Shown: positions 2,629-60,830, counted from the first letter of the stretch. The stretch is 64,000 nt of DNA from Candidatus Nomurabacteria bacterium (GCA_026396015.1 JAPLXP010000003.1:26626-90625); one strand, 5' to 3'. The notes: generated by a model not told the origin, from the sequence alone. Made by a program: numbers and translations.

Positions 2629-3093
2629 ATGAAAAAAATAATAGCAATCGCAATAGTTTGCCTAGGATGGGCAAATCTTGCAAAAGGTCAAAACCTTGGT
2701 TATTTACCAAATAATATACAAGGTATGCCCCAAAGTGAATTTGTACAAAGAGTATGTATTGAAAACAACATACAAAATCAGGGTATTACTGATAATATGT
2801 TTTTAATTTGGAAAACTGCACACTTTTCAAGTGTGAGTGAATCAAATGGAAAACAAATTATTTCCAAGCCTTCCAGCTATTGGAGTAATGGTTATTTTGC
2901 AATTAACCACATGTTTAATAGCACAAAAGCGGGACAAGCCATGTTCGATTTACAGGATCGAGTTGGCAAGAAAATTGGATTGCAGCCGTCATATGATATG
3001 AATGGCATGCTGGTTTGCATTCCCCCGTATTACAATGAAACATGTGAATTATATGTTTCTAGATTGCTTGAACAATTCAATCAGTCTAACTAA
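2629..3093 (+). CDS. Secreted hypothetical protein
   Basis: Start chosen at MKKIIAIAIVCLGWANLAKG (signal peptide) inside ORF 2581..3093. No family recognised. Confidence 0.45.
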   Translation: MKKIIAIAIVCLGWANLAKGQNLGYLPNNIQGMPQSEFVQRVCIENNIQNQGITDNMFLIWKTAHFSSVSESNGKQIISKPSSYWSNGYFAINHMFNSTKAGQAMFDLQDRVGKKIGLQPSYDMNGMLVCIPPYYNETCELYVSRLLEQFNQSN

Positions 3094-3168
3094 ATTCAAA
3101 AAGGACTTCGATATTCTCGAAGCCCTTTTTTGTTTACAATAGTAATTGTTTATTCTTGGTGTAGCCGT

Positions 3169-5100
3169 TTAAATATATATTATTTTTTCTCCATTGCCTC
3201 CGCCTCTTTCATGCTTCACTAGGTGCGATGGGATGTCTTCTAGGAATTCACTCGGTGTATTCACTTGCTTCATTCCGAATATCGTTCGCAGTGATGCGTG
3301 GCATAGATATAGCTTCTTTTCAGCGCGAGTCAGTGCTACGTAGAATAGTCTACGCTCTTCTTCGCTATCCTCCTTCTTGCCACCACCAGGTCTTGAATGC
3401 GGGAATAAATCTTTTTCAAGGCCTGTGATAAATACATATGGGAATTCAAGACCTTTTGAGGCGTGCACAGTCATGAGTCGCACCCCACCGGGCTTTGGCT
3501 TGTTTATCAGACTGTCCTGATCGCTAGATAATGCTGCGTCTTCGAGGATCTTGTCTATACCCTCCTCGATGTCGAATCCATCGTAGCGTACAGCTAGTGT
3601 CACCAACTCCTTCATGTTCTCTAGTCTTTCTAGGTCGTCGCTGGTACCCTTTTTCAATTCATCTTCCAGTCCACTCTTTTCAATAATGAATTTGATGATA
3701 TCGCTTGGCTTGTTCACCATAGCGAATTCATGGATATTGTCGAGCAGTGTATAAAAATTGCTGATCTTCATCTGCATACTTGCAGGTAGGTCATTCAATC
3801 CTCCGGAAAATAGCTTTACCAATGTGACTTTGCCGATACCTCGAGCTGGTGTATTGATTACCCGCTTGATATCTGACAGGCTATCACGATTCAGTGCCGC
3901 ACGTAGATATGATAGTACGTCTTTGATTTCTCTTCTATCAAAGAATTTTGTGCCGAGGACTTGATAAGGGATATTCTTGGAAAGCATTGCCTCTTCGAGT
4001 ACGCGGGATTGGAAATTCGCACGATAGAGTATAGCTATATCCTCGGGTTTGTTCTCTCTTAGTAGTTCGTGGATCTGATTTGCTACATATTTACCCTCGT
4101 ATACCTCGTCGAATGCCTCATACACTGTGATATCCTCCCCTGTCTCCTTTTCTGTGAACAATGTCTTTGGTACACGGAAAATATTTTTATTGATCACATT
4201 GTTGGCTGCCTCGATGATATTCTTTGTAGAGCGATAATTTTGCTCGAGCATCACGATCTTGGTACGAGGATAATCTTTTTCAAAGTGCAGCATGTTCTTG
4301 ATATTTGCTCCGCGCCAGCTGTAGATATTCTGATCTGTATCACCCACTACGCAGATATTCTCCCTTGGTCCTACTAGTAGCTTTACCATCTCGTATTGCA
4401 CCTCGTTGGTATCCTGATACTCATCCACGTGGATATATTGCCATTGATTCTGATAATGTAGTTTTACTTCTGGGTACTTTTTCAATATCATCACGGTCTC
4501 GATCAGTAAATCATCAAAGTCTAATGCCTTTTCGGCTTTTAGTGTTCTCTCGTAATCACGCCAGATAGTAGCGACGACGCTCTCAAATCCTGATTTTACT
4601 TCATTTGCATATCTATCTAGATTTATAAAGTCACCTTTTGCACGGGAGATGATGTTCTTGATCTTCCTGGGTTCATATTGCTTTGGATCAATGTCGCGAG
4701 CTTTTAGGGATTCCTTTATTATCTTCATGCAGTCATCATCATCAGATATTACGAAATGTTTCGTCAAACCTAGTAAGTGCGCATTCTCCTTGATAATCCG
4801 TACGCCGAGTGCGTGAAATGTAGAAACGAATGGATAACCACTATGTCCACCAGCGGGGGCACCATTTTCCCTCTGTGAAAGTAGTCCTATCACTCTTTCC
4901 CTCATCTCTTTTGCAGCCTTATTGGTAAAAGTCACTGCCAATATGTTTTCCGGTTTCACTCCGCCATGTACTATATGTACGATTCTGTGTGTCAGAGTCT
5001 TGGTCTTGCCTGCTCCGGCCCCTGCCACTATTAATAAAGGCCCTTGTGTATAAAGGACCGCTTCGCGTTGTTTTTCATTTAGTGTATTTAAATATTCCAC
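3169..5100 (-). CDS. ATP-dependent DNA helicase, UvrD/PcrA/Rep family
   Basis: N-terminal LNEKQREAV...AGAGAGKTKTLTHR (Walker A), VDEYQDTN (motif II, DEYQD), and a C-terminal UvrD_C-like region. Confidence 0.85.
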   Translation of the reverse strand: MEYLNTLNEKQREAVLYTQGPLLIVAGAGAGKTKTLTHRIVHIVHGGVKPENILAVTFTNKAAKEMRERVIGLLSQRENGAPAGGHSGYPFVSTFHALGVRIIKENAHLLGLTKHFVISDDDDCMKIIKESLKARDIDPKQYEPRKIKNIISRAKGDFINLDRYANEVKSGFESVVATIWRDYERTLKAEKALDFDDLLIETVMILKKYPEVKLHYQNQWQYIHVDEYQDTNEVQYEMVKLLVGPRENICVVGDTDQNIYSWRGANIKNMLHFEKDYPRTKIVMLEQNYRSTKNIIEAANNVINKNIFRVPKTLFTEKETGEDITVYEAFDEVYEGKYVANQIHELLRENKPEDIAILYRANFQSRVLEEAMLSKNIPYQVLGTKFFDRREIKDVLSYLRAALNRDSLSDIKRVINTPARGIGKVTLVKLFSGGLNDLPASMQMKISNFYTLLDNIHEFAMVNKPSDIIKFIIEKSGLEDELKKGTSDDLERLENMKELVTLAVRYDGFDIEEGIDKILEDAALSSDQDSLINKPKPGGVRLMTVHASKGLEFPYVFITGLEKDLFPHSRPGGGKKEDSEEERRLFYVALTRAEKKLYLCHASLRTIFGMKQVNTPSEFLEDIPSHLVKHERGGGNGEKIIYI

Positions 5101-5288: not shown

Positions 5289-5879
5289 ATGAAAAAATCA
5301 ATGTTATTTACAATTGTCACTGCGGTGATAATCATGTTCTCTTTAACTTCATGTGTTCAAAGAGTAAATGTACCAGCTTCTAGCTCCCAAGTTCAACAGT
5401 ATCCTCAGCTTTATGTTGGAGGTGAGCAAGTTTCCATTCCTCAAGAAACCCACGAACTTTCAACAGTTCAAGGTAAAGACTGCAACGGCAAAACAGTTAC
5501 TTGGCAAAAAATTGGGAAAAATTGTAATGACCCTTATAAGGTTGTTACAACTCAAGGTCAGCCAGTAATATTTATGCCAGCACCATCTTCTCAGAATGGT
5601 ATCGATTCATATATCGACTGGAGTTCATTGTATGTGTTAGCCTGGATTTTGGGTATTATTGGTTTGATTTGGTTGTTGAGCATGATGCCATGGTCAACAT
5701 GGAGATCTCGAACAAATCACAATCATTACTACCCTTCTTACCACAGTGGTCCTAGTTGTAGAAATGATTATAGCAGACCTGTAGATTATACAGAGAATAC
5801 TAAAACCACTACAACTACAGATACTTCTACAACAAGAACGTATCACCATCCTGAAAATAATCACGGTGGAGGACATTAA
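5289..5879 (+). CDS. Hypothetical lipoprotein with internal TM segment and His/Thr-rich C-terminus
   Basis: Lipobox-like MKKSMLFTIVTAVIIMFSLTSC. A second hydrophobic segment LYVLAWILGIIGLIWLL. C-terminus rich in T/H/N. Confidence 0.5.
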   Translation: MKKSMLFTIVTAVIIMFSLTSCVQRVNVPASSSQVQQYPQLYVGGEQVSIPQETHELSTVQGKDCNGKTVTWQKIGKNCNDPYKVVTTQGQPVIFMPAPSSQNGIDSYIDWSSLYVLAWILGIIGLIWLLSMMPWSTWRSRTNHNHYYPSYHSGPSCRNDYSRPVDYTENTKTTTTTDTSTTRTYHHPENNHGGGH

Positions 5880-49245: not shown

Positions 49246-49349
49246 AAAAAACAAAAATAGTCTATCCTATTTTAAAAAAGTTCTATCACAAAAAGCACCC
49301 GAAAGGGTGCTTTTTGATTGCTTGACAAAATTATACCAGAATATATACT

Positions 49350-49631
49350 TTGGTATATATGACTACAACAACAATGCTTATAAAAACAAATAAAGAATTA
49401 AAAACCAAGGCTCAAATTCTCGCAAAAGAGATGGGCCTACCTTTGGGTACTCTTATAAACAATTATTTAAAGACTTTTGTGATTGAAAGACAGGCTGTCT
49501 TTACTGCCCCAATGCCCAATAAAAAGACTATAAAGGCTATTGAACAGGCAAGACGTGATATAAAGGCAGGAAAGAATTTAGTTGGACCATTTGATAATGT
49601 AAAAGATATGATGAAAAGCCTCAATTCATAA
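49350..49631 (+). CDS. dinJ: RelB/DinJ-family antitoxin
   Basis: LINNYLKTFVIERQAVFTAPMPNKKTIKAIEQARRDIKAGK parallels E. coli DinJ (LVRITLTKVAREKALPFDLREPNQLTIQSIKNSEAG). Confidence 0.6.
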   Translation: MVYMTTTTMLIKTNKELKTKAQILAKEMGLPLGTLINNYLKTFVIERQAVFTAPMPNKKTIKAIEQARRDIKAGKNLVGPFDNVKDMMKSLNS

Positions 49632-49645
49632 TCTTTAAAAATAAT

Positions 49646-49903
49646 ATGATATTTGGTTATTCTCATTCATTTAAAAAAGATTATAAAAAACTTCCTCCTA
49701 AAATCAAGAAGCAACTTGGTATTAGGATTGAAATTTTTAAATTAAATCAATTTGATCGAATCCTGAATAATCATGCCGTACATCATCCATATACAGGATG
49801 TAGAAGTATAAATATTACAGGAGATTTACGAGCTTTGTATGAGGTAGATGGTGATAAACTCATATTTATCCGAATTGGTACGCATAGTGAATTATATGAA
49901 TAG
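49646..49903 (+). CDS. yafQ: YafQ/RelE-family mRNA interferase toxin
   Basis: Size and C-terminus ALYEVDGDKLIFIRIGTHSELYE parallel YafQ (ILIYKLTDKLLRFERTGTHAALFG). Immediately follows the DinJ-like gene. Confidence 0.6.
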   Translation: MIFGYSHSFKKDYKKLPPKIKKQLGIRIEIFKLNQFDRILNNHAVHHPYTGCRSINITGDLRALYEVDGDKLIFIRIGTHSELYE

Positions 49904-50343
49904 TTAAATAAAGAAGCATCCGAAAGGGTACTTTTTGTTTATTTATTCTATATATTATGGAAAATATAAAGCCTGAGGATTATGAAAATTCAAAATATAT
50001 AATTCAAAACAAAATAGATATTAATTTTAATAATTTATTAAAATCTCAAAAAGTCTTTTTAAAAGTATCTAAAATTTCTTTAGTAATCGCAATTCTTGGA
50101 TTTTTTTTGGAGTAATAGGTATATTGGTGATGGTGGCAGAAATGGAAACATTTTTATGTTTTCTGGCCCAGTTTCGTTTATTTCATTTTTGGGTTTTAAG
50201 TCTGATTCAGTAAGATTATCTAAAATAGAAAAATAGCAAAAAGCACCCACATGGGTGATTTTGATTGGGGGTAGGGGAAAAATTTGACAATTATTTTAAA
50301 TTTGCTAGTATAACCCTACGAGCTCAGTTAGAGCTTCTTTATA

Positions 50344-50697
50344 TTGTATATGACAAGATCACTAAAAAAAGGCCCATATGTAGATGAAAGGCTCTTGAAA
50401 AAGATTGCCGGAAAAAAGCCGATTGAAACGGCTATGATTAAGACTTGGTCTCGACCATGTGTTATATCACCAGAAATGGTTGGTTTTATGTTCGGTGTAC
50501 ACAATGGTAAGACTCATGTCGAAGTATTAGTAAGTGAAGACATGGTGGGTCACCGATTGGGCGAATTCTCTCCTACAAAGAAATTCGTACGTCACGGAGG
50601 TAAAATGCAGAAAGAATTAGAACAGAAGAAAAAGGAGGCCGAGATTACAGCCGCAAAGTCAGCAAAGGCTACAACGACCGACACTAAGAAGAAATAA
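50344..50697 (+). CDS. rpsS: 30S ribosomal protein S19 (with K/E-rich C-terminal extension)
   Basis: [15 protein letters not shown]...[28 protein letters not shown] matches S19. Confidence 0.9.
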
Positions 50698-50707
50698 TAT
50701 TTAATTT

Positions 50708-51130
50708 ATGAAAGCATTTCTAAAAAACTATAGACAGTCTCCTCGCAAGGTTCGCCTTGTAGCGGGACTCATTAAAGGCAAAAGGGTTGCTGATGCTAAC
50801 ACGCATCTGTCTTTCTTACCAAAGAGAGCATCACTTCCTATACAAAAGCTACTGAATTCAGCTGTTGCGAATGCAAAGCACGCTGGTATCAATACAGATA
50901 ATCTGATCGTGGCTACAGTTACAGTAGACAAGGGTATCGTCATGAAGAGATTCATGCCTCGTGCTCGTGGTTCTGCTTCACGCATCAACAAGCGCACAAG
51001 TCACGTAGTACTAACTCTTGCTGAGAAGGTAACTACAGAAAAAAAGTCGAAATCAACACCAAAGAAAGTATTGGCCTTAAAAGTAGCAAAGACTACAAAG
51101 AAGGTTACAAAAACTGCTAAAAAAGCTTAA
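50708..51130 (+). CDS. rplV: 50S ribosomal protein L22
   Basis: RQSPRKVRLVAGLIKGKRVADA...KRFMPRARGSASRINKRTSHV matches L22. Confidence 0.9.
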   Translation: MKAFLKNYRQSPRKVRLVAGLIKGKRVADANTHLSFLPKRASLPIQKLLNSAVANAKHAGINTDNLIVATVTVDKGIVMKRFMPRARGSASRINKRTSHVVLTLAEKVTTEKKSKSTPKKVLALKVAKTTKKVTKTAKKA

Positions 51131-51143
51131 TCTATAATATTAT

Positions 51144-51806
51144 ATGTCAAAAGTTGTCCATCCATACGCACATAGAATTGTAATCCTCCGTGATTGGAAA
51201 TCACGCTGGTTTGCTGATAAGAAATACAGTGACTTGCTAGCAAGTGACGTTGTTATCCGTGAATTCCTAGCAAAGAAGCTACGTGGTTTTTATGTTTCTC
51301 GTGTTGATATTGAAAGAAATGCAAAAGCAACAAAGGTTATCGTTCACACATCTCGCCCTGGTATGATCATCGGACGTGGAGGGGATGGTGCTACAAAGCT
51401 AAAGGCAGATATAATCAAGGCCCTAGCAAAGCGTAGAATCAAGGCTACTGAAGATTTGAAGCTCGACATAGTCGAAGTATCAAATCCAGATGCAGATGCT
51501 GCTATCGTGGCATGTATGATCGCTGAAGGTCTAGAAAAGCGTCTTCCTTACCGCCGTGTACTAAAGCAGACAATCGAAAAGGTTATGGGTGCTCGTGGAG
51601 TAAAGGGAGCACGTATATTCCTAGGTGGACGTCTTGCTGGTTCAGAAATAGCTCGTACAGAAAATATTAAACGTGGTTCTATTCCTCTTCAAACTTTTCG
51701 TGCTGACGTTGATTTCGCTCGCGAAAAGGCCCACATGAGTTATGGAGATATCGGTATCAAGGTCTGGATTTACCGTGGTGAAGTCTTTAGTGACGAAAAA
51801 AAGTAA
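51144..51806 (+). CDS. rpsC: 30S ribosomal protein S3
   Basis: KH domain and IGRGGDGATKLKADI. C-terminal S3 signature. Confidence 0.9.
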   Translation: MSKVVHPYAHRIVILRDWKSRWFADKKYSDLLASDVVIREFLAKKLRGFYVSRVDIERNAKATKVIVHTSRPGMIIGRGGDGATKLKADIIKALAKRRIKATEDLKLDIVEVSNPDADAAIVACMIAEGLEKRLPYRRVLKQTIEKVMGARGVKGARIFLGGRLAGSEIARTENIKRGSIPLQTFRADVDFAREKAHMSYGDIGIKVWIYRGEVFSDEKK

Positions 51807-51819
51807 TTAAATAATCTTT

Positions 51820-52242
51820 ATGTTATTACCCAAAAAAGTAAAATTTAGAAAATGGCACACAGGTCGCAAGAGCGAATCTCGTATGCAAAGTGGAGTTGAG
51901 ACTCGTGGTCTTACTGTTGCTTTTGGTTCTTATGGCCTAAAAGCTATATCAGCTGGACGCATCAAATCAAACCAACTAGAATCTGCTCGTAAGGCTGCTA
52001 CTCGTGCAGCTACAAAGGCAGCTCGCATCTGGATCCGTGTTTTCCCTGATAGACCATTTACAGCAAAGCCAGCAGAGGTAGGTATGGGAAAGGGTAAAGG
52101 AGATCCACAAGGTTACTGCGTAGAAATATTCCCTGGACGTATGTTATTTGAAGTAGATGGTATTCCAGAGGCTCTTGCAAAAGAAGCACTCCGAAAAGCC
52201 GGTACAAAGTTACCAGTTAAGACTCGCGTGGTAGCACGATAA
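51820..52242 (+). CDS. rplP: 50S ribosomal protein L16
   Basis: [16 protein letters not shown]...[12 protein letters not shown] matches L16. Confidence 0.9.
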
Positions 52243-52247
52243 TATAT

Positions 52248-52490
52248 ATGAACACAACAAAGATAAATAAGAATAAAGTACTCAAAGGAGTTGTAACAAG
52301 TGATAAGATGGATAAGACAATCGTAGTATCTGTAACTCGCTTCGTAGAACACGCAAAGTACGGAAAGCGAATCAAGAAGAGCAAGAAATACAAGGCTCAT
52401 GATGAAAACAACACAAAGAAAATTGGCGATGTAGTCGAAATCGAAGAGACAAAACCAATGTCAAAAGACAAGCATTTTAAGGTAATATAG
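52248..52490 (+). CDS. rpsQ: 30S ribosomal protein S17
   Basis: [22 protein letters not shown]...[31 protein letters not shown] matches S17. No L29 gene lies between rplP and this gene. Confidence 0.85.
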
Positions 52491-52571
52491 AATTAGTTTA
52501 TAGTAGCTAGGGGCTAGGTTCTAGGGATTGAATTCACTAGAAACTAGAAACTAGAACCTAATCAAAAATTT
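52491..52571. repeat. CTAG-built palindromic repeat (member 5)
   Basis: tagtagctaggggctaggttctagggattgaattcactagaaactagaaactagaacctaatc. Confidence 0.6.
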
Positions 52572-52943
52572 ATGATACAAGACGGAACAGTAGTAAAGAT
52601 CACAGATAATGCCGGCGGTAAAGTCGGAAAGGTTTTCAAAGTGCTTGGATCTTCAAAGCGTCGTTATGCTGGTATCGGTGACCGTGTAGTCCTCTCAGTA
52701 AAAGTTGCTGAACCTCGCAAGGGTGTAAAGAAAAAGGATGTTCTACAGGCTGTCGTTGTACGTACTACAAATGCATTTCGCCGTAAGGATGGTTCATACA
52801 TCCGTTTTGATGACAACGCAGTTGTAATCTTAGAAAAGGACAAGCAGGATCCAAAAGCAGGTCGTGTGTTCGGTCCAATTCCTCGTGAATTGGCAGAACG
52901 TGGTTACCAAAAGATCATATCTTTGGCACCAGAGGTGATTTAA
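52572..52943 (+). CDS. rplN: 50S ribosomal protein L14
   Basis: MIQDGTVVKITDNAGGK...RVFGPIPRELAERGY matches L14. Confidence 0.9.
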   Translation: MIQDGTVVKITDNAGGKVGKVFKVLGSSKRRYAGIGDRVVLSVKVAEPRKGVKKKDVLQAVVVRTTNAFRRKDGSYIRFDDNAVVILEKDKQDPKAGRVFGPIPRELAERGYQKIISLAPEVI

Positions 52944-52961
52944 TAATTTCAATATAATATT

Positions 52962-53177
52962 ATGCACGTAAAAAAAGGAGACAATGTAATAGTTATTGCC
53001 GGAGGAAGTAAAGGAAAGAAAGGCAAAATCGAAAAGGCAATCCCAACTTCAAACATGGTGGTTATTGAAGGTGTTAACATCAAAAAGAAGCACATGAAAG
53101 CTACTCGCGGAGCAAAAGGTCAAATCGTAGAAAAGGCTATGCCTATCCACGTTTCTAATGTTAAGAAAGTAAGTTAA
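52962..53177 (+). CDS. rplX: 50S ribosomal protein L24 (short form, KOW domain)
   Basis: [23 protein letters not shown] (KOW). Position between rplN and rplE. Confidence 0.8.
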
Positions 53178-53184
53178 AATATTT

Positions 53185-53724
53185 ATGGAAACAACAAAGA
53201 CAAAAGAAAAGAAGGCATACAGTACAATGAAGGCTGAATTCGGCTACAAGAGTAGTATGGCAGCCCCACGCCTCACAAAGGTAGTAGTTGCTTGCGGTAC
53301 TGGTTCAGGTGTAAAGCGTGATAAGGATCGCAATAAATTTATTGCTGATCGTATCGCAAAGATCACTGGACAGAAGCCATCACTCCGTGGAGCAAAGAAA
53401 TCAATTGCATCATTCAAGGTTCGTGAAGGGGATCCAGTAGGAGTCATGGTGACTCTACGTGGAGCTCGTATGTACGGATTCCTAGACAAGCTAATCAATG
53501 TAGCTATCCCTCGTACAAAGGACTTTCGTGGAATTGAACGCAAGATCGTAGACAACATCGGTAATCTGACTATGTCTATCAAGGAGCACACAATCTTCCC
53601 AGAGACTGGCGACGAAGAACTAAAGGATGTATTCGGTCTAGCAGTCACAATCGTGACTACAGCTGGAGACAAGAAAGAGGCTACAAAATTCTTTGAGCTT
53701 ATCGGTGTACCATTCAAGAAATAA
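53185..53724 (+). CDS. rplE: 50S ribosomal protein L5
   Basis: VTLRGARMYGFLDKLINVAIPRTKDFRG matches L5. Confidence 0.9.
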   Translation: METTKTKEKKAYSTMKAEFGYKSSMAAPRLTKVVVACGTGSGVKRDKDRNKFIADRIAKITGQKPSLRGAKKSIASFKVREGDPVGVMVTLRGARMYGFLDKLINVAIPRTKDFRGIERKIVDNIGNLTMSIKEHTIFPETGDEELKDVFGLAVTIVTTAGDKKEATKFFELIGVPFKK

Positions 53725-53790
53725 TCTAGTTTTCATAAAAATCCCTCATCCGAGGGATTTTTTGTTAGTTATGGCGCATAATTCATTTAT

Positions 53791-54027
53791 GTGGTATTAT
53801 ATTTGTATATGAAATTCCCAAGTGTTATACAATTTTTTATCCAAAATGCTGAAGAGGGGGGTTACACCGCTTCTGCTGTTGGTTATTCTATTTATACTCA
53901 AGGAGAGACCCTCGATGAAACTGTTCGCAATATAACAGAAGCAGTTGAATGTCATTTCGGAGAAGATGAAGTAAAATCACGTTCTCTTCCCATTATGGTT
54001 AATTTTGCAGTGCCTACATTGGCGTAA
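53791..54027 (+). CDS. hicB: HicB-family antitoxin
   Basis: IQNAEEGGYTASAVGYSIYTQGETLDETVRNITEAVECHF parallels the HicB/UPF0150 core (EDGGY..FPDLPGC.T.GDTLEEA..NA.EAL.LH). Confidence 0.6.
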   Translation: MVLYLYMKFPSVIQFFIQNAEEGGYTASAVGYSIYTQGETLDETVRNITEAVECHFGEDEVKSRSLPIMVNFAVPTLA

Positions 54028-54032
54028 TCTCT

Positions 54033-54272
54033 ATGCAGAAATTGAAGCAACTTTCAGGCAGGGAAGTAGTAAAAATTTTTGAATCCCATGGTTTTCAAGT
54101 AAAACGAATAGTAGGAAGTCATACTCGACTGACATTACTTAAAGATGATAATTCCTACCATGTGACTATTCCACTCCACAATCCGGTCAAAAAGGGGACA
54201 CTGCACAGTATTATGAAAGATTTTGAACTTTGTTTTGGAAAAGAAGAAACAAATAAATGCTTTTATAATTAA
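54033..54272 (+). CDS. hicA: HicA-family mRNA interferase toxin
   Basis: GREVVKIFESHGFQVKRIVGSHTRLT...VTIPLHNPVKKGTLHSIMKDF parallels HicA/YcfA (GFELVRQKGSHH.F....TV..H...L..GTL.SIL). Confidence 0.6.
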   Translation: MQKLKQLSGREVVKIFESHGFQVKRIVGSHTRLTLLKDDNSYHVTIPLHNPVKKGTLHSIMKDFELCFGKEETNKCFYN

Positions 54273-54276
54273 TGAC

Positions 54277-54358
54277 AAAATTCTTTGAGGCTTTAGGTGT
54301 ACCATTCAAAAAAGCATAATCTAGTTTTCATAAAATCCCTCATTTGAGGGATTTTTAT
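54277..54358 (+). repeat. Direct-repeat copy (~88% identity) of rplE 3' end plus its terminator (53689..53770), flanking the HicBA cassette
   Basis: acaaaattctttgag[ctt/gct]t..ggtgtaccattcaa.aaa...taatctagttttcataaaa(a)tccctcat..gagggattttt in both places. Confidence 0.65.
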
Positions 54359-54398
54359 CTGTTACAAAATTTACATCCAAATATGGTATAATAAGATT

Positions 54399-55181
54399 AT
54401 GAAAAAAATATTAATTGTTTTATTAGTCCTGCTTGTTTTTTGTAGTCTTTTTTATTTTTTAAAAAATAATTCTATTAATATATTAGATAAACCTTCTCCT
54501 CAAATAGAGAATATTAAAACTCAAGCAAGCGAGACAACAAAAACCGAGAATAATATTCAAACAAATCCTAATATTTTACAAGCTGGGTCAATTAGACTTA
54601 TAGAACCATTTGATGGTGAAAAGTTAATCTCTGGTTCTAAAATCAGTGTGCAGTATGAGATATTAGGACCTATAAAATTTGGGTCTATTTTAATATCAAA
54701 GGATTGTAATCATACAATAAATTTACAAGAAAATATTGGAAAACATTCATTTGATTGCACTTTACCAAAAACAATTGGCAATTTAAAGATTGGAATTCAA
54801 GAAATGATATATTCACCAAAGGTAGAAAGTAAAGAGGCGAATGGAAATTTAACTTTAATTGAATCAAATGATTTATCAGTTAAGGATATCTTATATTACC
54901 CTGAACAAATTTTTATGGATGCAACACCTAAAAAACAAAATGATGGGTACGTGTCATTTAAAGTACTTTATAGTGATGGAACAAAAAACGAAGTTGATAC
55001 CTCGTTGTTCGATATTCATATTAAAGATGAATCAGTTGCTTCAATTTTTGGGAAGTCAAATGGAGGGATTGTCAGCTTGGATGGAAAAAAAGAGGGTCAA
55101 ACTCAAATGATTGTTAATTATAAAGGTATCAATAAAATTATTCCAATTGAAGTTTATCCTCACGACGATTCTTTACAATAG
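54399..55181 (+). CDS. Secreted/anchored protein with C-terminal bacterial Ig-like (Big_2-like) domain
   Basis: N-terminal TM/signal. C-terminal ...GGIVSLDGKKEGQTQMIVNYKGINKIIPIEV typical of Big_2. Confidence 0.45.
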   Translation: MKKILIVLLVLLVFCSLFYFLKNNSINILDKPSPQIENIKTQASETTKTENNIQTNPNILQAGSIRLIEPFDGEKLISGSKISVQYEILGPIKFGSILISKDCNHTINLQENIGKHSFDCTLPKTIGNLKIGIQEMIYSPKVESKEANGNLTLIESNDLSVKDILYYPEQIFMDATPKKQNDGYVSFKVLYSDGTKNEVDTSLFDIHIKDESVASIFGKSNGGIVSLDGKKEGQTQMIVNYKGINKIIPIEVYPHDDSLQ

Positions 55182-55204
55182 TTCTATTTATAAATCTAAA
55201 AAAT

Positions 55205-55459
55205 ATGAATGAAATAAAACCATTAGTGAATAATCCCAATATCAATAAACTCAAAACACCAACTTTAGCTATCATCCTACTTAGTAGTGGAATAGTATGT
55301 TTTGGTTTATTCTTTTTTCTATTAATGTACTCATGTAAAGGGGATGATTTTGTTTGTGGAATAGGTTTATTCATTAAAGGCATGGTAATAATACTACCTG
55401 CTTCACTAGTACTATTGATTTGGGGGTTGATTGAGCTTCATAAATTTTTCAAGAAATAA
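55205..55459 (+). CDS. Small two-TM membrane protein
   Basis: Two hydrophobic helices. No family recognised. Confidence 0.35.
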   Translation: MNEIKPLVNNPNINKLKTPTLAIILLSSGIVCFGLFFFLLMYSCKGDDFVCGIGLFIKGMVIILPASLVLLIWGLIELHKFFKK

Positions 55460-55544
55460 TCTCGTTTCCATAAAAATCCCTCAATGAGGGGTTTTTTGTA
55501 CGTGTGTGATAAAATTATGATAGATTTTTATTAACTTATATTTT

Positions 55545-56771
55545 ATGCAATCAAATATTTTTAAAAGATTTTTTGTTTTGATTCTGATCTTCCTGATTCC
55601 TATCTCCAATGCTTTTGCTCGTGGCGGCGGGGGAGGGTCTGGCGGCGGGGGCTCTGGTAGTGGTAGTTCTGGTGGAGGGTCTTTACTCCAGCCAGCTGTT
55701 GCTTTGATGGTCTTCATTACTATTACAATAGTAGGTGTTTATAATAGGAATAAGAAACTTAAACAAACAAAATCATTATTGGAAAAGGCCGTATCTTCAG
55801 ACCCAGCCTGGGGCGAGGCTGGAATAAAACAAATAGCGTCAGATACCTTTAATAAATTCCAAAAAGATTGGAGTGATTTTAATTGTGATGGTATGAAGTC
55901 TTATTTGACTGAGAGTTTCTATCAGAGGGTGTCTTTGGAATTGAACGTCTTAAAAAATCAAAAAAGACAAAATCTCATGTCAGATGTGTATTTGGGTAGT
56001 GTGGTTGTTTGGAATTTAAAAGATAACGAAGGGGTAAATAGTGATTCTGTAACACTTGAAATGTCTGCTTCTGCAAAGGACCAGCTTGTAGACCTTGAAT
56101 GCAATAAAGTTTTGTATACTGATAGTGAACCCTTTATCGAATATTGGACTTTTGTGAGGGTCAACAGTGGGTGGAAATTGAATTTGATAGAGCAAGCCAC
56201 AGAAGATAGGGCTATGAGAGAGGATTCTATTGCAGATTTTGCAGAACGTAACAAATTCTTTTATGATGCTGACTTTGGTTGGCTCATGATGCCTTTGAAT
56301 GGAGTCGTATTCAGAAAGGGGAATCTGACTGTGTCAGATATAAATAATCATGTCATTGGTTCATTCAAGGATAAAATCGTTGAATTTTATACATTCATTC
56401 CAAACCCACAGTCATTTTCTAAAAAGAACTATATTGTCGCTCAGGCCATACTGCCAATAAAATACAAGGATATTCTGGTTAGAAGGAAGAGAATGTTGTT
56501 CAACCTTAGTCCACGTGGACTAAGGAGGGTCAGGACAGAGAGCAACGATTTTGACCGCAAATTCTGCCTCTGGGCGCATCCTCAGGATCAGATTAATTCA
56601 TTCGAGCTATTAACTCCTGATTTTATGGTCAAGATTTATGATCTGCCGTTTGAGTTGAATATCGAGATAGTAGACAATATCCTGTATTTCTATGCTGAAT
56701 CTAGGAAGGATATAGATTACGACGTTATGCTCGATCTCCTGGGTAGAGCATTTGACGATATGGAAAGATAA
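55545..56771 (+). CDS. Membrane protein with Gly/Ser-rich linker and Tim44-like domain
   Basis: Signal/TM, (G/S) run RGGGGGSGGGGSGSGSSGGG, second TM, then a region resembling the Tim44-like fold (DPAWGEAGIKQIASDTFNKFQKDWSDFN...YWTFVRVNSGWKL). Confidence 0.4.
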   Translation: MQSNIFKRFFVLILIFLIPISNAFARGGGGGSGGGGSGSGSSGGGSLLQPAVALMVFITITIVGVYNRNKKLKQTKSLLEKAVSSDPAWGEAGIKQIASDTFNKFQKDWSDFNCDGMKSYLTESFYQRVSLELNVLKNQKRQNLMSDVYLGSVVVWNLKDNEGVNSDSVTLEMSASAKDQLVDLECNKVLYTDSEPFIEYWTFVRVNSGWKLNLIEQATEDRAMREDSIADFAERNKFFYDADFGWLMMPLNGVVFRKGNLTVSDINNHVIGSFKDKIVEFYTFIPNPQSFSKKNYIVAQAILPIKYKDILVRRKRMLFNLSPRGLRRVRTESNDFDRKFCLWAHPQDQINSFELLTPDFMVKIYDLPFELNIEIVDNILYFYAESRKDIDYDVMLDLLGRAFDDMER

Positions 56772-56971
56772 TAAAGTCCCCGAAAGGGGCTTTTATTATT
56801 GTTTTTGCATTTGACATTATCCTACCTATCTGATAGGATAGGGGGACGTGATTGATGGATCCGTTCTTCTCCTTAAGAGATAATAATACTTTTAAGAAAA
56901 GGAATGAGATATCGCAATCATATCCCTAGGGTATATCCCTCGGGTCAGTTTTATTAAAGATAAATTATAAT

Positions 56972-57157
56972 ATGGCAAAAACATCAGTTATAGCAAGACA
57001 TTTAAAGAAGAGTAAGTTTACATCTCGAGAAACAAATCGTTGTTTTCGTTGTGGTCGTGGACATGCATTTATGAGAGATTTCGGTCTATGTCGTATCTGT
57101 TTCCGTGAACTAGCTAATGAAGGTATGCTACCAGGTGTTCGTAAGTCTTCTTGGTAA
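56972..57157 (+). CDS. rpsZ: 30S ribosomal protein S14 type Z (zinc-binding)
   Basis: 61 aa with [23 protein letters not shown] four-Cys motif. Confidence 0.9.
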
Positions 57158-57186
57158 TCTCAAAATAAACTTTTAACTAAAAATAT

Positions 57187-57573
57187 ATGGATCAAATAGC
57201 AAACATGGTAAATATGGTAAAGAATGCAAACCGCGTAGAGCGCGAGTCTGTGACTGTTCCATATTCAAAATTAAAGCAATCAATAGCAGATGCACTAGTA
57301 GCAGAAGGGTACCTAAAGAAGGCTACAAAGAAGATGCAAAAAGGATTCCCTACACTAGAACTAGAATTGGTATATGTAGATGGATCACCAAAAGTTACAG
57401 GAGTAGAACGTGTTTCAAAGTCATCATGTCGTGTTTACAAGGGTGTAAAGGAAATCCGCTCTGTTCGTCATGGTTTTGGATCAATGTTTCTTTCAACACC
57501 AAAAGGTATCTTAACAGACAAGCAAGCTCGTAAAGAGATGGTCGGAGGCGAAGTATTATTTAAAATCTGGTAA
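57187..57573 (+). CDS. rpsH: 30S ribosomal protein S8
   Basis: IADMLTRIRNA-like N-terminus (IANMVNMVKNANRVE) and C-terminal GGEVLFKIW match S8. Confidence 0.9.
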   Translation: MDQIANMVNMVKNANRVERESVTVPYSKLKQSIADALVAEGYLKKATKKMQKGFPTLELELVYVDGSPKVTGVERVSKSSCRVYKGVKEIRSVRHGFGSMFLSTPKGILTDKQARKEMVGGEVLFKIW

Positions 57574-57582
57574 TAACATTTT

Positions 57583-58119
57583 ATGTCACGTATAGGAAAA
57601 CAAATAATAAATATCCCCGCAGGAACTGAGGTAAAGCAGACAGGTACTAGCATGTCTATAAAAGGACCAAAAGGAACACTCGTACGAGATTTCCCTGGTA
57701 CTGTTGCTATAAACATCAACGGCGCAGAGATAACTCTCACTCCAAAGAATGAAAACGACAAGACAGAGCGCTCTCTATGGGGTACTTATGCTTCTCATAT
57801 CAAGAATATGGTAGCAGGAGTAAATACAGGATACACAAAGAAATTGATCCTAGAAGGAGTTGGATTCAAGTCAGAAGTAGCAGGCAAGGTATTAAAGCTT
57901 GCTCTTGGTTTTTCACACCCAGTAAACGTTGATATCCCAGAAGGTCTTACAGTCACAGCAGAAAAGAACATTGTTACAGTTACAGGTATCGATAAGGAGC
58001 TCGTTGGTCAATGGACAGCAGGTGTTCGCTCATTGAAAAAGCCAGAACCATACAAGGGTAAAGGTTTCCGTTACGATACTGAAGTTATTCGTCGTAAGCA
58101 AGGTAAGAAAGCTGCATAA
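57583..58119 (+). CDS. rplF: 50S ribosomal protein L6
   Basis: [18 protein letters not shown]...LILEGVGFK... matches L6. Confidence 0.9.
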
Positions 58120-58124
58120 AATAT

Positions 58125-58466
58125 ATGAACAAGAAACAAGAAAAAAGAATAAGATTAAAGAAAAAGATTCGTGCAAAGATTGGTGTTGGTTCTTCTCGCC
58201 CTCGTCTTTCAGTGTTTCGTTCAAATGCATTTATCTATGCTCAGGTTATTGATGATACAAAGGGTATAACACTCGCTTCTTCTTCAGACATAAAAGTAAC
58301 ATCTGGCACAAAATCAGAACGTGCTGCCGCAGTAGGTGCAGAAGTTGCAAAGCTAGCTATCGCAAAAGGAATCAAAGAAGTAGTTTTTGATCGTAATGGA
58401 TTTAAATATACAGGTCGCGTAAAAGCATTAGCTGATGGGGCTCGCTCCGGTGGCTTGCAATTCTAA
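58125..58466 (+). CDS. rplR: 50S ribosomal protein L18
   Basis: [20 protein letters not shown]...[42 protein letters not shown] matches L18. Confidence 0.9.
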
Positions 58467-58475
58467 TAAATTTTT

Positions 58476-59108
58476 ATGGATACAAATAACAAACCAAAAC
58501 CAAATACAGCTACACCTACAAGTACAAGACCTCGCTACGGAACACGTCCAGCAGGAACAGGAGCAAGACCAGGTACAGGTGGAACTGGTGACAGAAAGCC
58601 TCGTGCATTCTTTGAGAGACCAAAACCAGAATTTGATCAGAAAATGGTTTCTATCCGTCGCGTTACTCGTGTGGTATCAGGTGGACGTCGTATGACATTC
58701 GCTGTAGCACTAGCTATCGGTGACAAGAAGGGTTCAATCGGACTAGGAACAGGTAAGGGTGCTGACACAGCAGTTGCAATAGCAAAGGCTCTACGTGCAG
58801 CAAAGAAAAGTATGTTCAAGATTGCTCTTACAAAAGAAATGTCTATCGCTCATGAGACAGCTGCAAAATTTGGAAGTTCAAAGGTTGCAATCATGCCAAA
58901 CAAGGGTAAGGGACTAGTTGCAGGTAGTACAGTTCGTGATATGCTAGTTCTAGCAGGAGTCAAGAATGTAACTGCAAAATTGCACTCTGGAAGTAAAAAC
59001 AAACTAAACAATGCTCGTGCTGCCTACGATGCTCTCGCATCAGTAAAAGCAAGAAAGGTTGTAGCAAAGAAAGAAGCAGAAGTAGTAGAAGCTGTAGAAG
59101 CAAAATAA
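58476..59108 (+). CDS. rpsE: 30S ribosomal protein S5 with ~50-aa P/T/G-rich N-terminal extension
   Basis: VSIRRVTRVVSGGRRMTFAVALAIGDKKGSIGLGTGKGADTAVAIAKA matches S5. Confidence 0.9.
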   Translation: MDTNNKPKPNTATPTSTRPRYGTRPAGTGARPGTGGTGDRKPRAFFERPKPEFDQKMVSIRRVTRVVSGGRRMTFAVALAIGDKKGSIGLGTGKGADTAVAIAKALRAAKKSMFKIALTKEMSIAHETAAKFGSSKVAIMPNKGKGLVAGSTVRDMLVLAGVKNVTAKLHSGSKNKLNNARAAYDALASVKARKVVAKKEAEVVEAVEAK

Positions 59109-59122
59109 TCTAAAATAATTTT

Positions 59123-59551
59123 ATGCAATTAAACGAATTAAAAAGAAATAATCCAAATAGAAAAGCTCGTCAAGTTGGACGCGGAGGTATTCGTGGTAAA
59201 CAAGCTGGACGTGGAGGCAAGGGTCAGACAGCTCGTGCAGGTAACAAGCGCCGCCCTCAAATTCGTGATATCATAAAGAAGCTTCCAAAGCTCCGTGGTT
59301 ACCGATTCAAGTCTACAGTTTTGAAGCCAAACGTTGTAAACGTGTCAGCATTGAATGTATTCGAAGCTGGTACAGTTGTGACTCCTACATCTCTATTTGC
59401 AAGTAAGCTAATCCGTAAATCTCATGGAAAGCTTCCAAAGGTAAAGATCCTAGGAACAGGTGAGTTGACTACAAAGATAAATGTTGAAGGTTGTATCGTT
59501 TCTGAAACTGCCGCAGCAAAAATTAAACAAGTTGGAGGAACTATCAAATAA
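59123..59551 (+). CDS. rplO: 50S ribosomal protein L15
   Basis: MQLNELK...GRGGIRGKQAGRGGKGQTARAG matches L15. No L30 gene precedes it. Confidence 0.9.
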   Translation: MQLNELKRNNPNRKARQVGRGGIRGKQAGRGGKGQTARAGNKRRPQIRDIIKKLPKLRGYRFKSTVLKPNVVNVSALNVFEAGTVVTPTSLFASKLIRKSHGKLPKVKILGTGELTTKINVEGCIVSETAAAKIKQVGGTIK

Positions 59552-59558
59552 TAACTAA

Positions 59559-60830
59559 ATGGAAAAGTTTTTACACAAACTAAAGATAGTATTCACCGAC
59601 CGCGCGCTGCGAAAGCGTGTCTTGTTTGTTCTTGCACTACTAGTAGTGTTCAGACTATTGGCTGCTATTCCAATTCCTGGAGTAGATGCTATGAAGCTAC
59701 AAGCTTTTTTGAATAACAATCAATTTCTAGGAGTACTGAATGTATTCTCTGGTGGGGGATTGTCACACCTTTCATTGATCATGCTTGGGGTAGGACCATA
59801 CATTACTTCATCTATCATCATGCAGCTTTTGACTATCATGTCACCTCGTATCAAGGCTATGTATCAGGAGGATGGTGAGATCGGACGTAAAAAGTTCAAT
59901 CGCATCAGTCGTTTTGTTACTATCCCTCTTGCTATAATCCAAGCTATCACATTTATAATGCTTCTTTCAAAGCAAGGAGTACTAGGTGATATCACACTAT
60001 TTGCAAAGATCGCAAACATCTCACTAGTTGTCGCTGGTTCAATGCTGCTTATGTGGCTCGGTGAATTAGTTTCAGAATTTGGTATTGGTAATGGTGTATC
60101 ATTGATCATCTTTGCTGGTATCGTAGCTAATCTTCCAAAAGAAATTAGTCAATTCATGTTTACTTTTGATGCTGCTAGTATTCCACTTTACATACTATTT
60201 CTACTTGTTGGAATCTTGATCATCATCGGTGTAGTAGTAGTTACAGAGGCAGAGCGCCCAATTCCAGTTACTTATGCTCGTCAGATTCGTGGTGGTGCTA
60301 CTTCAGGTGGTACATCTACATACATACCTCTACGAGTGAACCAGTCAGGTGTTATTCCAATAATCTTTGCATTGTCTATATTGCTATTCCCTCAGATTGC
60401 AGGAACATTCCTCTCTACAATGGCAAATCACACACTAACAACTATCGGTGCTGGACTGCTATGGTTCGTACAAAATGTATGGCTATACTCACTTGTATAC
60501 TTTATATTCGTATTCCTATTTACATATTTCTATACAGCTGTGACATTTGATCCAAATCAGCTCGCAGAGAACCTACAAAAGAATGGTGCATTCATCCCAG
60601 GTATTCGTCCAGGTATCGCTACTCGTGACTATATCGCAAAGGTATTGAATCGTATCACCTTGATGGGTGCTATATTCCTCGGAGTTATCGCTGTTCTTCC
60701 ATTGATAATGAAAGCAATCACAGGTATTACTTCATTCGCATTGGGTGGTACTGCGTTGTTGATCGTTGTTTCAGTAGTGCTTGATATTATTAAAAAAGTT
60801 GAAGCCGAACTCTCCATGAGAGAGTACTAA
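59559..60830 (+). CDS. secY: Preprotein translocase subunit SecY
   Basis: Ten TM helices. Position after rplO. Confidence 0.9.
   Translation: MEKFLHKLKIVFTDRALRKRVLFVLALLVVFRLLAAIPIPGVDAMKLQAFLNNNQFLGVLNVFSGGGLSHLSLIMLGVGPYITSSIIMQLLTIMSPRIKAMYQEDGEIGRKKFNRISRFVTIPLAIIQAITFIMLLSKQGVLGDITLFAKIANISLVVAGSMLLMWLGELVSEFGIGNGVSLIIFAGIVANLPKEISQFMFTFDAASIPLYILFLLVGILIIIGVVVVTEAERPIPVTYARQIRGGATSGGTSTYIPLRVNQSGVIPIIFALSILLFPQIAGTFLSTMANHTLTTIGAGLLWFVQNVWLYSLVYFIFVFLFTYFYTAVTFDPNQLAENLQKNGAFIPGIRPGIATRDYIAKVLNRITLMGAIFLGVIAVLPLIMKAITGITSFALGGTALLIVVSVVLDIIKKVEAELSMREY

Follow-up and report, generated by a model that had tools for sequence, protein, structure and literature searches.

In sequential displacement arrays, such as those of the rhs genes, the orphan modules of contact-dependent inhibition (CDI) systems and the effector-immunity genes of the Vibrio cholerae type VI secretion system (T6SS), a new module adjoins a conserved upstream anchor gene. 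The old 3' fragment of the anchor and the older modules are kept downstream, and the order of the modules tracks how widely they are shared. Either homology-facilitated illegitimate recombination (HFIR) or plain homologous recombination has been proposed for the T6SS effector-immunity arrays and the rhs orphans (PMC5361080). Core-flanked hotspots, in turn, hold variable accessory content between highly conserved flanks, with insertions at operon boundaries; in Gammaproteobacteria and Bacilli, insertions into the ribosomal protein (r-protein) gene cluster typically lie between operons (PMC8046335). We describe here a locus that shares these features, the interval between rplE (ribosomal protein L5) and rpsZ (zinc-type S14) in a 64,000-nt stretch of DNA from a Candidatus Nomurabacteria bacterium (GCA_026396015.1 JAPLXP010000003.1:26626-90625). 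We refer to this stretch as the window, and all positions are those of the window, with features on the plus strand, unless another genome is named. A toxin-antitoxin (TA) cassette, hicBA, adjoins rplE at this locus and, to judge from the sequence, the old end of rplE appears to have been pushed downstream as a decaying 39-nt relic together with its terminator.

The anchor gene rplE (53185..53724) is conserved; its product matches Pfam Ribosomal_L5 (5e-15) and L5_C (5.7e-28) and is 65-91% identical to RplE of 80 Nomurabacteria/Paceibacteria species. rpsZ (56972..57157; Pfam Ribosomal_S14, 1e-21) opens the next transcription unit, and five open reading frames (ORFs) lie between the two genes. 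The last 39 coding nt of rplE, beginning at ACAAAATTC, make up, together with the stop codon and the native terminator with its T-tract, a segment (53683..53770) that we call copy 1, or A. Its terminator hairpin is AAAAATCCCTC-ATCC-GAGGGATTTTT, a 9-bp stem and a 4-nt loop followed by the T-tract, and the same hairpin is also present 3' of rplE in three close relatives (L001, L085 and L086; we designate other genomes and contigs by L numbers) and at the empty site of L022. When 53683-53770 was compared by blastn with the whole window, two further copies were found. The better match (54275-54356, 86.7% over 83 columns, E = 7e-14) corresponds to copy 2, or A' (54275..54358), in which a displaced former rplE 3' end (54275-54319) is followed by a terminator. 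A first-pass annotation of the sequence had reported that 53689..53770 recurs at 54277..54358 with about 88% identity; our alignment agrees with this, except that the repeat starts 6 nt further left. The coding part of copy 2, which encodes a peptide ending FEALGVPFKKA before its stop codon, is decayed and out of frame with hicA. The other match (55448-55483, 94% over 36 nt, E = 7e-11) belongs to copy 3, or A'' (55448..55497), which comprises the last 12 nt of rplE (TTCAAGAAATAA), a spacer and a degenerate terminator hairpin, and which agrees with the rplE end of L001 at 48 of 50 positions. Beyond copies 2 and 3, no match to copy 1 was found in the window below E = 0.004.

Copies 1 and 2 bracket hicB (53809-54027) and hicA (54033-54272), in the order that had been noted earlier. 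The interval had been described as a single cassette plus three extra genes and, while the five ORFs are as described, copy 3 had been missed. What the window contains is a series of three self-contained, terminator-bounded units, which from rplE outward are hicBA, a pair of genes encoding proteins of 260 and 84 aa, and a gene encoding a DUF3137 protein. The first two units each close with an A copy and the third with a hairpin of its own that is not an A copy. A terminator scan called Rho-independent terminators (a GC-rich hairpin and a T-tract) in copy 1 (53737-53762), in copy 2 (54332-54355) and at the end of the last unit (56773-56793). Besides the terminator hairpins there are no inverted repeats in the island. 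Its GC content falls to 0.25-0.29 at about 54200-55600, compared with 0.40-0.45 in the r-protein genes. The possibility that the hairpin is a dispersed repeat or an uptake signal was ruled out, since within the 64 kb it is confined to the rplE-rpsZ locus.

Comparison with close relatives reveals the origin of copy 2. Homology of the window to L001 and L085 ends just past the T-tract of copy 1 (53766-53770) and restarts at 56800-56803, just ahead of the rpsZ promoter. Between these shared flanks the window, L085, L001 and L086 carry four different sets of cargo. In L085, with 96-98% core DNA identity to the window, there is a single 171-aa ORF with its own terminator. L001 (86-92% identity) has a DUF5672 gene between two hairpin copies and then a gene for an 88-aa membrane protein. 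The order in L086 (core 91-99%) is rplE-A, the 260-aa and 84-aa genes, A, a 142-aa gene and a PG_binding gene, A, and then genes for proteins of 180 aa, 109 aa and the DUF3137 family, so that this genome carries three A copies. hicBA is absent from the rplE-rpsZ interval of all three relatives, and the five genes of the window are not found together there as a stable arrangement. Window positions 54275-55496, from copy 2 through copy 3, align to L086 176-1396 with 97.2% identity, and L086 176-217 is the functional end of rplE, followed directly by the 260-aa gene. Copy 2 is therefore a former rplE end, because its ortholog in L086 is a working one. This bears out the earlier reading of the repeat as the footprint of an insertion, L086 having the functional end without hicBA, but the duplication is not of the transposase type, as considered below. 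Measured in this way, the hicBA event comprises a gain of 512 bp (53763-54274) and the duplication of 80 bp (ACAAAATTC...GGGATTTTT). The coding part of copy 2 is 85.7% identical to L086, with a 3-nt insertion, and the portion after the stop codon is 94.4% identical. Whether copy 2 could be an rplE end imported from another species was also considered. It most resembles copy 1 of the window itself (75/79) and L001, and its KKA-stop ending and TAGG codon recall, over a very short stretch, rplE ends of the L008/L024 type.

The identity of the window to L086 is a mosaic. It is 91.4% in the 3' part of rplE, 98.8% in the promoter and 260-aa gene, 97.5% in the 84-aa gene region, 86.6% in the DUF3137 gene, 96.4% across the terminator, promoter and leader that precede rpsZ, 98.9% in rpsZ and 96.2% in the part of rpsH compared. 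These changes occur in steps located at the A copies, from which it follows that the units have been exchanged independently of their neighbors, with breakpoints at A copies. That the units do move is evident from the second of them, which is 98.8% identical between genomes in which rplE is only 91.4% identical. At this site DUF3137 is present in the window, in L086 and in L009, unit 2 in the window and L086, and hicBA in the window's population only; the distal units are therefore the more widely shared. Further, the hairpin ahead of DUF3137 in L086 is unrelated to A and homology to the window restarts exactly past its T-tract, so that joints coincide with the T-tracts of terminators that have different hairpins. 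In other samples, contigs of a 99.3%-identical strain (L083 and L084) break off within copy 1 (window position 53742), which suggests either that the repeat interrupted the assembly or that cargo varies at the strain level.

The identification of HicA is well supported. The 79-aa protein, a predicted mRNA interferase, matches Pfam HicA_toxin (PF07927) with E = 7e-15 and 55.3 bits (cut-off 27) over profile positions 1-57 of 58, in agreement with the first-pass annotation, and its translation (...KRIVGSHTRLTL...) contains an intact G28-S29-H30 motif. The histidine of the Gly-x-His motif of HicA is a conserved catalytic residue. The 72-aa antitoxin had also been called HicB-like, and here the sequence matches are weak: the Pfam HicB_lk_antitox score (E = 0.052) is below threshold, and a sequence hidden Markov model (HMM) comparison with PDB 2yzt gave E = 0.31. 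However, when an AlphaFold (AF2) model made from 38 homologs, with a predicted local distance difference test (pLDDT) score of 77.5, was compared with the PDB by Foldseek, the top five matches (6u0i_B, 6hpb_B, 3k6q, 1wv8 and 2yzt) all belonged to the HicB family. Their E-values are only 0.017-0.17; the E. coli HicB structures 6u0i_B and 6hpb_B match with probabilities of 1.0 and 0.99. The model aligns, over 58 columns, with the N-terminal domain of E. coli HicB only, and the C-terminal DNA-binding domain, of the ribbon-helix-helix (RHH) or helix-turn-helix (HTH) type, is absent from the 72-aa protein. Such a domain is common in the family, is not strictly defining, and in the systems that have been studied has a role in autoregulation. 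The fold match thus supports a model in which the ORF encodes a minimal HicB without the DNA-binding domain. Homologs of this protein form 89 clusters, mostly of 72 aa, a CPR (candidate phyla radiation) family of which several members carry the name HicB in JGI or NCBI records. The NCBI record for the window protein reads "2-oxoisovalerate dehydrogenase", as do those of some other members, and this is likely a propagated misannotation.

As in its homologs, hicB starts at the ATG at 53809 and not at the GTG at 53791. Only about 8 nt ahead of this ATG lies an extended -10 box (TGGTATTAT, 53792-53800), which could serve as the hicBA promoter, in which case the mRNA would be near-leaderless. The conserved left end of the cassette is at 53787..53808, homology to the hicBA cassette of L089 beginning at 53787. 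The gap between hicB and hicA is 5 nt, and the two genes are neighbors at more than 40 loci. Between the window and L089 the nonsynonymous (dN) and synonymous (dS) divergences are 0.059 and 1.22 for hicB, 0.14 and 1.51 for hicA, and 0.11 and 1.44 for rplE. Both hicB and hicA are therefore under purifying selection (dN/dS about 0.05-0.09), like rplE. At the DNA level hicBA is 80% identical to L089, as against 70-77% for core genes. Compared with HicAB type II TA systems such as that of E. coli (PDB 6hpb), the window pair is alike in its HicA_toxin domain, its G-S-H motif, the partial RNase H-like fold of the HicB N-terminal domain and the 5-nt gap. It differs in that the antitoxin is only 72 aa long and lacks the RHH or HTH domain, in the order hicB-hicA and in an mRNA that is probably near-leaderless. 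The window HicBA is a member of a CPR-specific, minimal-HicB subfamily, the 89 clusters referred to above, of this known family.

A scan with RplE yielded 80 species-level genomes, all of them Nomurabacteria/Paceibacteria (CPR), and in these we measured 20 consecutive r-protein junctions, taking a distance of more than 400 bp as the criterion for cargo. Eighteen of the 20 are tight, with median distances of -3 to 37 bp, and among these the criterion is exceeded occasionally (secY-adk in 8/35 and rplX-rplE in 2/76). Only two junctions are hypervariable. One is rplE-rpsZ, where 42 of 59 species exceed 400 bp, with up to 4.2 kb, and the other is rplB-rpsS, with 37 of 49 species and up to 2.7 kb. 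Even empty rplE-rpsZ sites (132-250 bp) have a terminator, a promoter (TTGACA...TAGTAT) and the conserved leader. In the window the native rpsZ promoter (56811..56839) consists of TTGACA, a 17-nt spacer and TAGGAT with a TG. Because terminator, promoter and leader are present even when the site is empty, rpsZ opens its own transcription unit in this clade, and the island sits between a terminator and a promoter rather than within an operon. The claim that it had inserted inside the spc operon must therefore be given up, since every relative has the terminator, promoter and structured leader and 42 of the 59 species carry cargo there. A literature search turned up no account of hotspots in the r-protein operons of Patescibacteria or Parcubacteria.

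The cargo at rplE-rpsZ in other species is heterogeneous and includes PG_binding_1, adenylate kinase, NUDIX and sigma factor genes. Eleven pilin-like (N_methyl) ORFs are also found across species, as are defense-like genes encoding a Schlafen/AlbA_2 + HATPase_c_4 protein (L064 6695-8104), RVT_1 reverse transcriptases of about 340 aa (L077 8223-9236 and L079 8204-9232) and the Gp49/HTH_3 TA pair of L002 described below. Group IIC introns insert after terminators and were considered as makers of the boundary; this was not supported, as the only RVT_1 proteins in the cargo, those of L077 and L079, adjoin rpsZ and not the rplE terminator.

The second hypervariable junction is also occupied in the window, by an rplB-rpsS insertion (49246..50349) that is built like the rplE-rpsZ island and in which GC content dips to 0.26-0.29. 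A relBE pair, comprising a relB/dinJ antitoxin (49359-49631) and a relE/yafQ toxin (49646-49903), and a degraded small ORF are set apart by a threefold repeated rplB terminator, with copies at about 49288-49318 (T1), 49909-49938 (T2) and 50234-50265 (T3). T1 precedes the pair, T2 follows it and T3 lies beyond the degraded ORF, after which comes the rpsS promoter (50284-50311). A diacylglycerol kinase gene is present at rplB-rpsS in 22 of 49 relatives and absent from the window.

Parallel events were found in other genomes. In L002, whose RplE is 85% identical to that of the window, a Gp49(HigB-like)/HTH_3 TA pair lies behind rplE on the minus strand (2929-3560). Next come a displaced rplE relic, which begins at about -39 to -42, the same position as the window relic, and then the old terminator and promoter, which match the native end of L008. 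L089 carries hicBA in its rplE-rpsZ island amid other cargo, behind a degenerate copy of its own terminator. The cassette common to L089 and the window begins only at the -10 box (53787), ends with the hicA stop (54273) and is without terminal repeats. The rplE-rpsZ island of L021 holds a truncated hicB. At other loci, hicBA is found downstream of rplJ-rplL in L091 and, in L094-96, within a pair of 73-nt direct repeats, a further copy of which lies past the next gene. In L094, a CPR contig unrelated to the window, TruB and NYN genes are its neighbors, and the repeats (3847-3919, 4644-4716 and 5554-5600) are 97% identical, G-rich and furnished with a TATAAT box, and they precede both hicBA and the next (NYN domain) gene, forming a repeat-punctuated series of cassettes with a different repeat. 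A duplication also flanks hicBA in L108 (2808-3442 and 3984-4611, period about 1.17 kb); it includes 258 nt across the 3' end of fmt (methionyl-tRNA formyltransferase) and a small ORF, and its topology is that seen at rplE. The lengths of these duplications are 80 bp for hicBA in the window, 23-50 bp in sister units, 23-84 nt at rplE-rpsZ overall and more than 250 bp elsewhere. An nhmmer profile of rplE 3' ends, which is insensitive for 40-nt relics and missed that of L002 although blastn had detected it, recovered from all the islands only copy 2 of the window (E = 0.019). Among 41 distinct hicBA loci with enough flanking sequence, direct repeats (E <= 1e-4) flank the cassette in 5, compared with 5 of 176 shifted controls (odds ratio 4.75, Fisher p = 0.023).

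We consider it somewhat more probable than not that the island arose by sequential displacement through recombination, using homology in the rplE end and terminator and microhomology in the T-tracts, and not by transposition. In such a model the rplE-rpsZ boundary would serve as a landing pad for accessory genes across the clade, with units gained, lost and swapped by the general recombination of the host acting on DNA from relatives. CPR bacteria encode machinery for DNA uptake. Homology would come from the conserved rplE end and from the A copies, and we infer from the structures three possible routes: Campbell-type insertion-duplication, two crossovers inside an A...A' frame that the donor supplied, or HFIR, with one homologous end and one illegitimate or microhomology joint. 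The T-tracts of the terminators may supply microhomology at the remaining joints, and a dedicated transposase or integrase would be unnecessary. Selection might confine the joints to the few nt between the T-tract and the -35 box of rpsZ and favor events that leave each unit with a terminator, the duplicated terminators insulating each unit and the rpsZ leader transcriptionally. If HicA becomes free to cleave mRNA once HicB runs low, cells that delete the cassette through its flanking repeats would be penalized, and HicBA may also provide abortive infection or phage defense.

Several observations weigh against this model. Detectable A copies are present in only about 7 of about 60 species islands and most cargo has no footprint, in which case the A copies may have decayed or the cargo may have arrived in another way. 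The shared start of the remnants in the window and L002, at about -39, is not predicted by random illegitimate joining and could reflect a site-specific step. The hicBA dS values with respect to L089 are saturated (1.2-1.5) and about equal to that of rplE, giving no positive sign of recent transfer, the enrichment of repeats around hicBA is modest, and the 72-aa HicB lacks the domain that studied systems use for autoregulation. No intermediate, either circle or donor, has been seen, so that the route is deduced from end products only. L086 could itself be the result of a precise deletion between copies 1 and 2, so that the hicBA event may have run in the opposite direction. Finally, the absence of a recombinase, transposase or integrase, which speaks for the model, holds for the five island ORFs and the flanking r-protein genes, the rest of the window and of the genome not having been searched.

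This last point bears on the proposal that a recombinase encoded elsewhere inserts circular cassettes, using the hairpin or the rplE end as an att- or attC-like site. An integron-like or integrase system of this kind would account for an array punctuated by hairpins, for the narrow distribution of the rplE-proximal hicBA, as if new cassettes enter beside the conserved gene, and for the frequency of TA cassettes, which are common in chromosomal integrons as well. The inclusion of the target gene's 3' end in the repeat is likewise reminiscent of islands in tRNA and protein genes, and the recurrence of the -39 start in two independent events is the best support for it. attC sites have the architecture R''-L''...L'-R', a GTTRRRY core and a length of 55-140 nt. 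The 9-bp stem, 4-nt loop and T-tract of the A hairpin have neither the R''/L''/L'/R' arrangement nor that core, and an attC reading was rejected on this anatomy. Moreover, the repeat is each genome's own terminator and differs by site and lineage, as seen in the rplB terminator, the 73-nt repeat of L094 and the 258-nt fmt end of L108. Its length varies from 23 to 84 nt at rplE-rpsZ and exceeds 250 nt elsewhere, the joint ahead of DUF3137 coincides in L086 with the T-tract of a hairpin unrelated to A, and the island encodes no integrase. We regard such a system as quite improbable. Transposition, with hicBA as the cargo of a small non-autonomous transposon, is very improbable indeed and is effectively refuted. 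The direct repeats do bracket hicBA exactly, and the first-pass annotation had on this basis proposed a target-site or terminal duplication, but the target-site duplications made by transposases are far shorter than 80 bp. Terminal inverted repeats are lacking, the island encodes neither a transposase nor an integrase, the conserved cassette consists of the promoter and two genes only, and the sister duplications range from 23 to more than 250 bp.

A further alternative is an older, vertical arrangement, in which hicBA and the relic are ancestral, the repeat came from a local tandem duplication and hicBA was lost elsewhere by deletion between the repeats. hicBA is also found in the rplE-rpsZ island of L089 and, with a truncated hicB, in that of L021, its dS with respect to L089 equals that of rplE, and a deletion between the A copies would recreate exactly the structure of L086. 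The coding part of copy 2 is about 14% changed, and the hicBA event is therefore not very recent. However, hicBA would then have to have been lost separately in L085, in L086, in L001 and in the majority of the 59 species. This explanation does not fit the L089 cassette, which lies amid different cargo behind a copy of that genome's own terminator, or the close hicBA homologs at unrelated loci (L091 after rplJL; L094 near TruB and NYN), and the contrast in identity between unit 2 and rplE shows that cargo has moved. On balance we think it unlikely. As for an artefact of assembly or binning, for example a chimeric join at the repeat, the contigs of L083 and L084 that end inside copy 1 might be taken to point this way, but two independent Logan assemblies (SRR20698644 and SRR20698640) are 100% identical across the whole island, so that it is not a product of misassembly, and L086, L001 and L002 share its architecture with other cargo. 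The chance of such an error is negligible.

Recombination at the duplicated rplE end may be one instance of something broader, which we put forward as a speculative possibility that we would not expect to hold in full. In Nomurabacteria, and possibly in other CPR too, the native terminators at the two internal boundaries of the r-protein supercluster could serve as portable sites for recombination in an integron-like cassette system that works without a recombinase. In it, promoter-gene-terminator units would be exchanged across species by natural transformation and TA pairs would protect the arrays from deletion through the repeats. If this were true, the r-protein genes would supply cross-species homology, capture would take place beside the genome's most conserved genes, and minimal TA cassettes would spread by insertion-duplication.

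The first gene of unit 2 (54399..55181) encodes an orphan 260-aa protein with an N-terminal hydrophobic segment and without a match to any Pfam or NCBIfam family. It had been described as Big_2-like; no Pfam match supports this, either with the full length (E <= 0.1) or with the C-terminal 96 aa (E <= 1). Only three clusters of this protein are present among 5.8 billion proteins, and its distant homologs sit in other flexible regions. The second gene (55205..55459) encodes an 84-aa small membrane protein and is intact in L086. Its last four codons and stop (TTC AAG AAA TAA, ending F-K-K-stop), at 55448-55459, derive from the duplicated rplE 3' end of copy 3, a small case of the end of a gene being recruited from a relic. 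The most distal unit (55545..56771) encodes a 408-aa membrane protein with a Gly/Ser-rich linker. The earlier description of this protein as Tim44-like is only weakly supported: the Pfam Tim44 score (3.5e-4, 21.2 bits) is below the 29.6-bit threshold, but DUF3137 passes (5.9e-7, 29.9 bits, threshold 26.1). Its gene has orthologs at rplE-rpsZ in L086 (86.6% DNA identity) and L009 (60% aa identity), and the L009 protein passes for Tim44, with 30.9 bits. None of the five island proteins matches NCBIfam.

Downstream of the island, the rpsZ-rpsH genes are preceded by a structured leader RNA (56858..56913), in which two helices surround an internal loop with an invariant UCUCC and a conserved GAAAA. 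The leader was detected in 47 of 59 rplE-rpsZ loci. In 45 Nomurabacteria sequences, 12 of 16 pairs show compensatory changes by RNAalifold, the share of paired cells is 95.3% compared with 37-56% when the partners are slid by 1-3 columns, and the covariation score is 0.556 compared with 0.06-0.15 in these slid controls. A search of 50000-60000 against Rfam 15 (E <= 1) returned nothing. The leader is a candidate r-protein autoregulatory site for the clade, and our guess is that it may be bound by S8 or S14. The r-protein gene block of the window also shows absences. rpmC (L29) is missing between rplP and rpsQ (52243-52247), as it is in about 45 of 76 relatives, mostly the closer ones, and is present in 29 others; a search of the whole 64 kb for an L29-like sequence gave nothing. 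As CPR genomes usually do, the window also lacks rpmD (L30) between rpsE and rplO.

These results have several implications. The r-protein block, which is used as an "invariant" phylogenetic and binning backbone for the CPR, has two hypervariable accessory hotspots in Nomurabacteria, and these may break assemblies and carry strain-specific genes. Classical mobile elements are scarce in these bacteria, which are presumed to depend on DNA uptake, and the rplE-rpsZ island offers a clean natural example of gene gain by 3'-end displacement without mobile-element machinery. The placement of TA cassettes (HicBA and RelBE, with HigBA in relatives) directly beside essential translation genes makes a stabilizing or defensive role testable.

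Of the known systems, the displacement arrays with which we began are the closest. Their hallmark, a 3' fragment of the anchor kept downstream of a newer module, is found in copy 2 of the window and again in L002. The differences are that the anchor here is an r-protein gene whose product is unchanged, that the cargo is functionally unrelated to the anchor, and that what is displaced is a 12-39-nt coding relic and a terminator rather than a toxin domain. Chromosomal integron arrays are similar in having tandem small cassettes, each with a similar imperfect palindrome, in the mixture of TA pairs and orphan small proteins and in variable content. However, attC, attI and intI are all lacking here, the punctuation is a Rho-independent terminator of the host, and the units seem to have their own promoters. 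As with an integrase-borne island at the 3' end of a gene, there are direct repeats that include the target gene's 3' end, but the integrase gene expected within such an island is absent. Campbell-type insertion-duplication likewise produces a direct duplication of the homologous segment on both sides of the insert, of variable length and far above that of transposase duplications; no circular intermediate has been observed in this case, and the mechanism is only a candidate for the natural route. Compared with core-flanked hotspots, finally, the two sites in this CPR clade split what in E. coli are the single S10 and spc operons (rplB|rpsS and rplE|rpsN), are occupied in most species and bear footprints of repeated terminator duplication. 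The locus is therefore distinct from the known arrays and hotspots in its r-protein anchor, in its use of a host terminator as punctuation and in the position of its sites, which split the S10 and spc operons of model bacteria.

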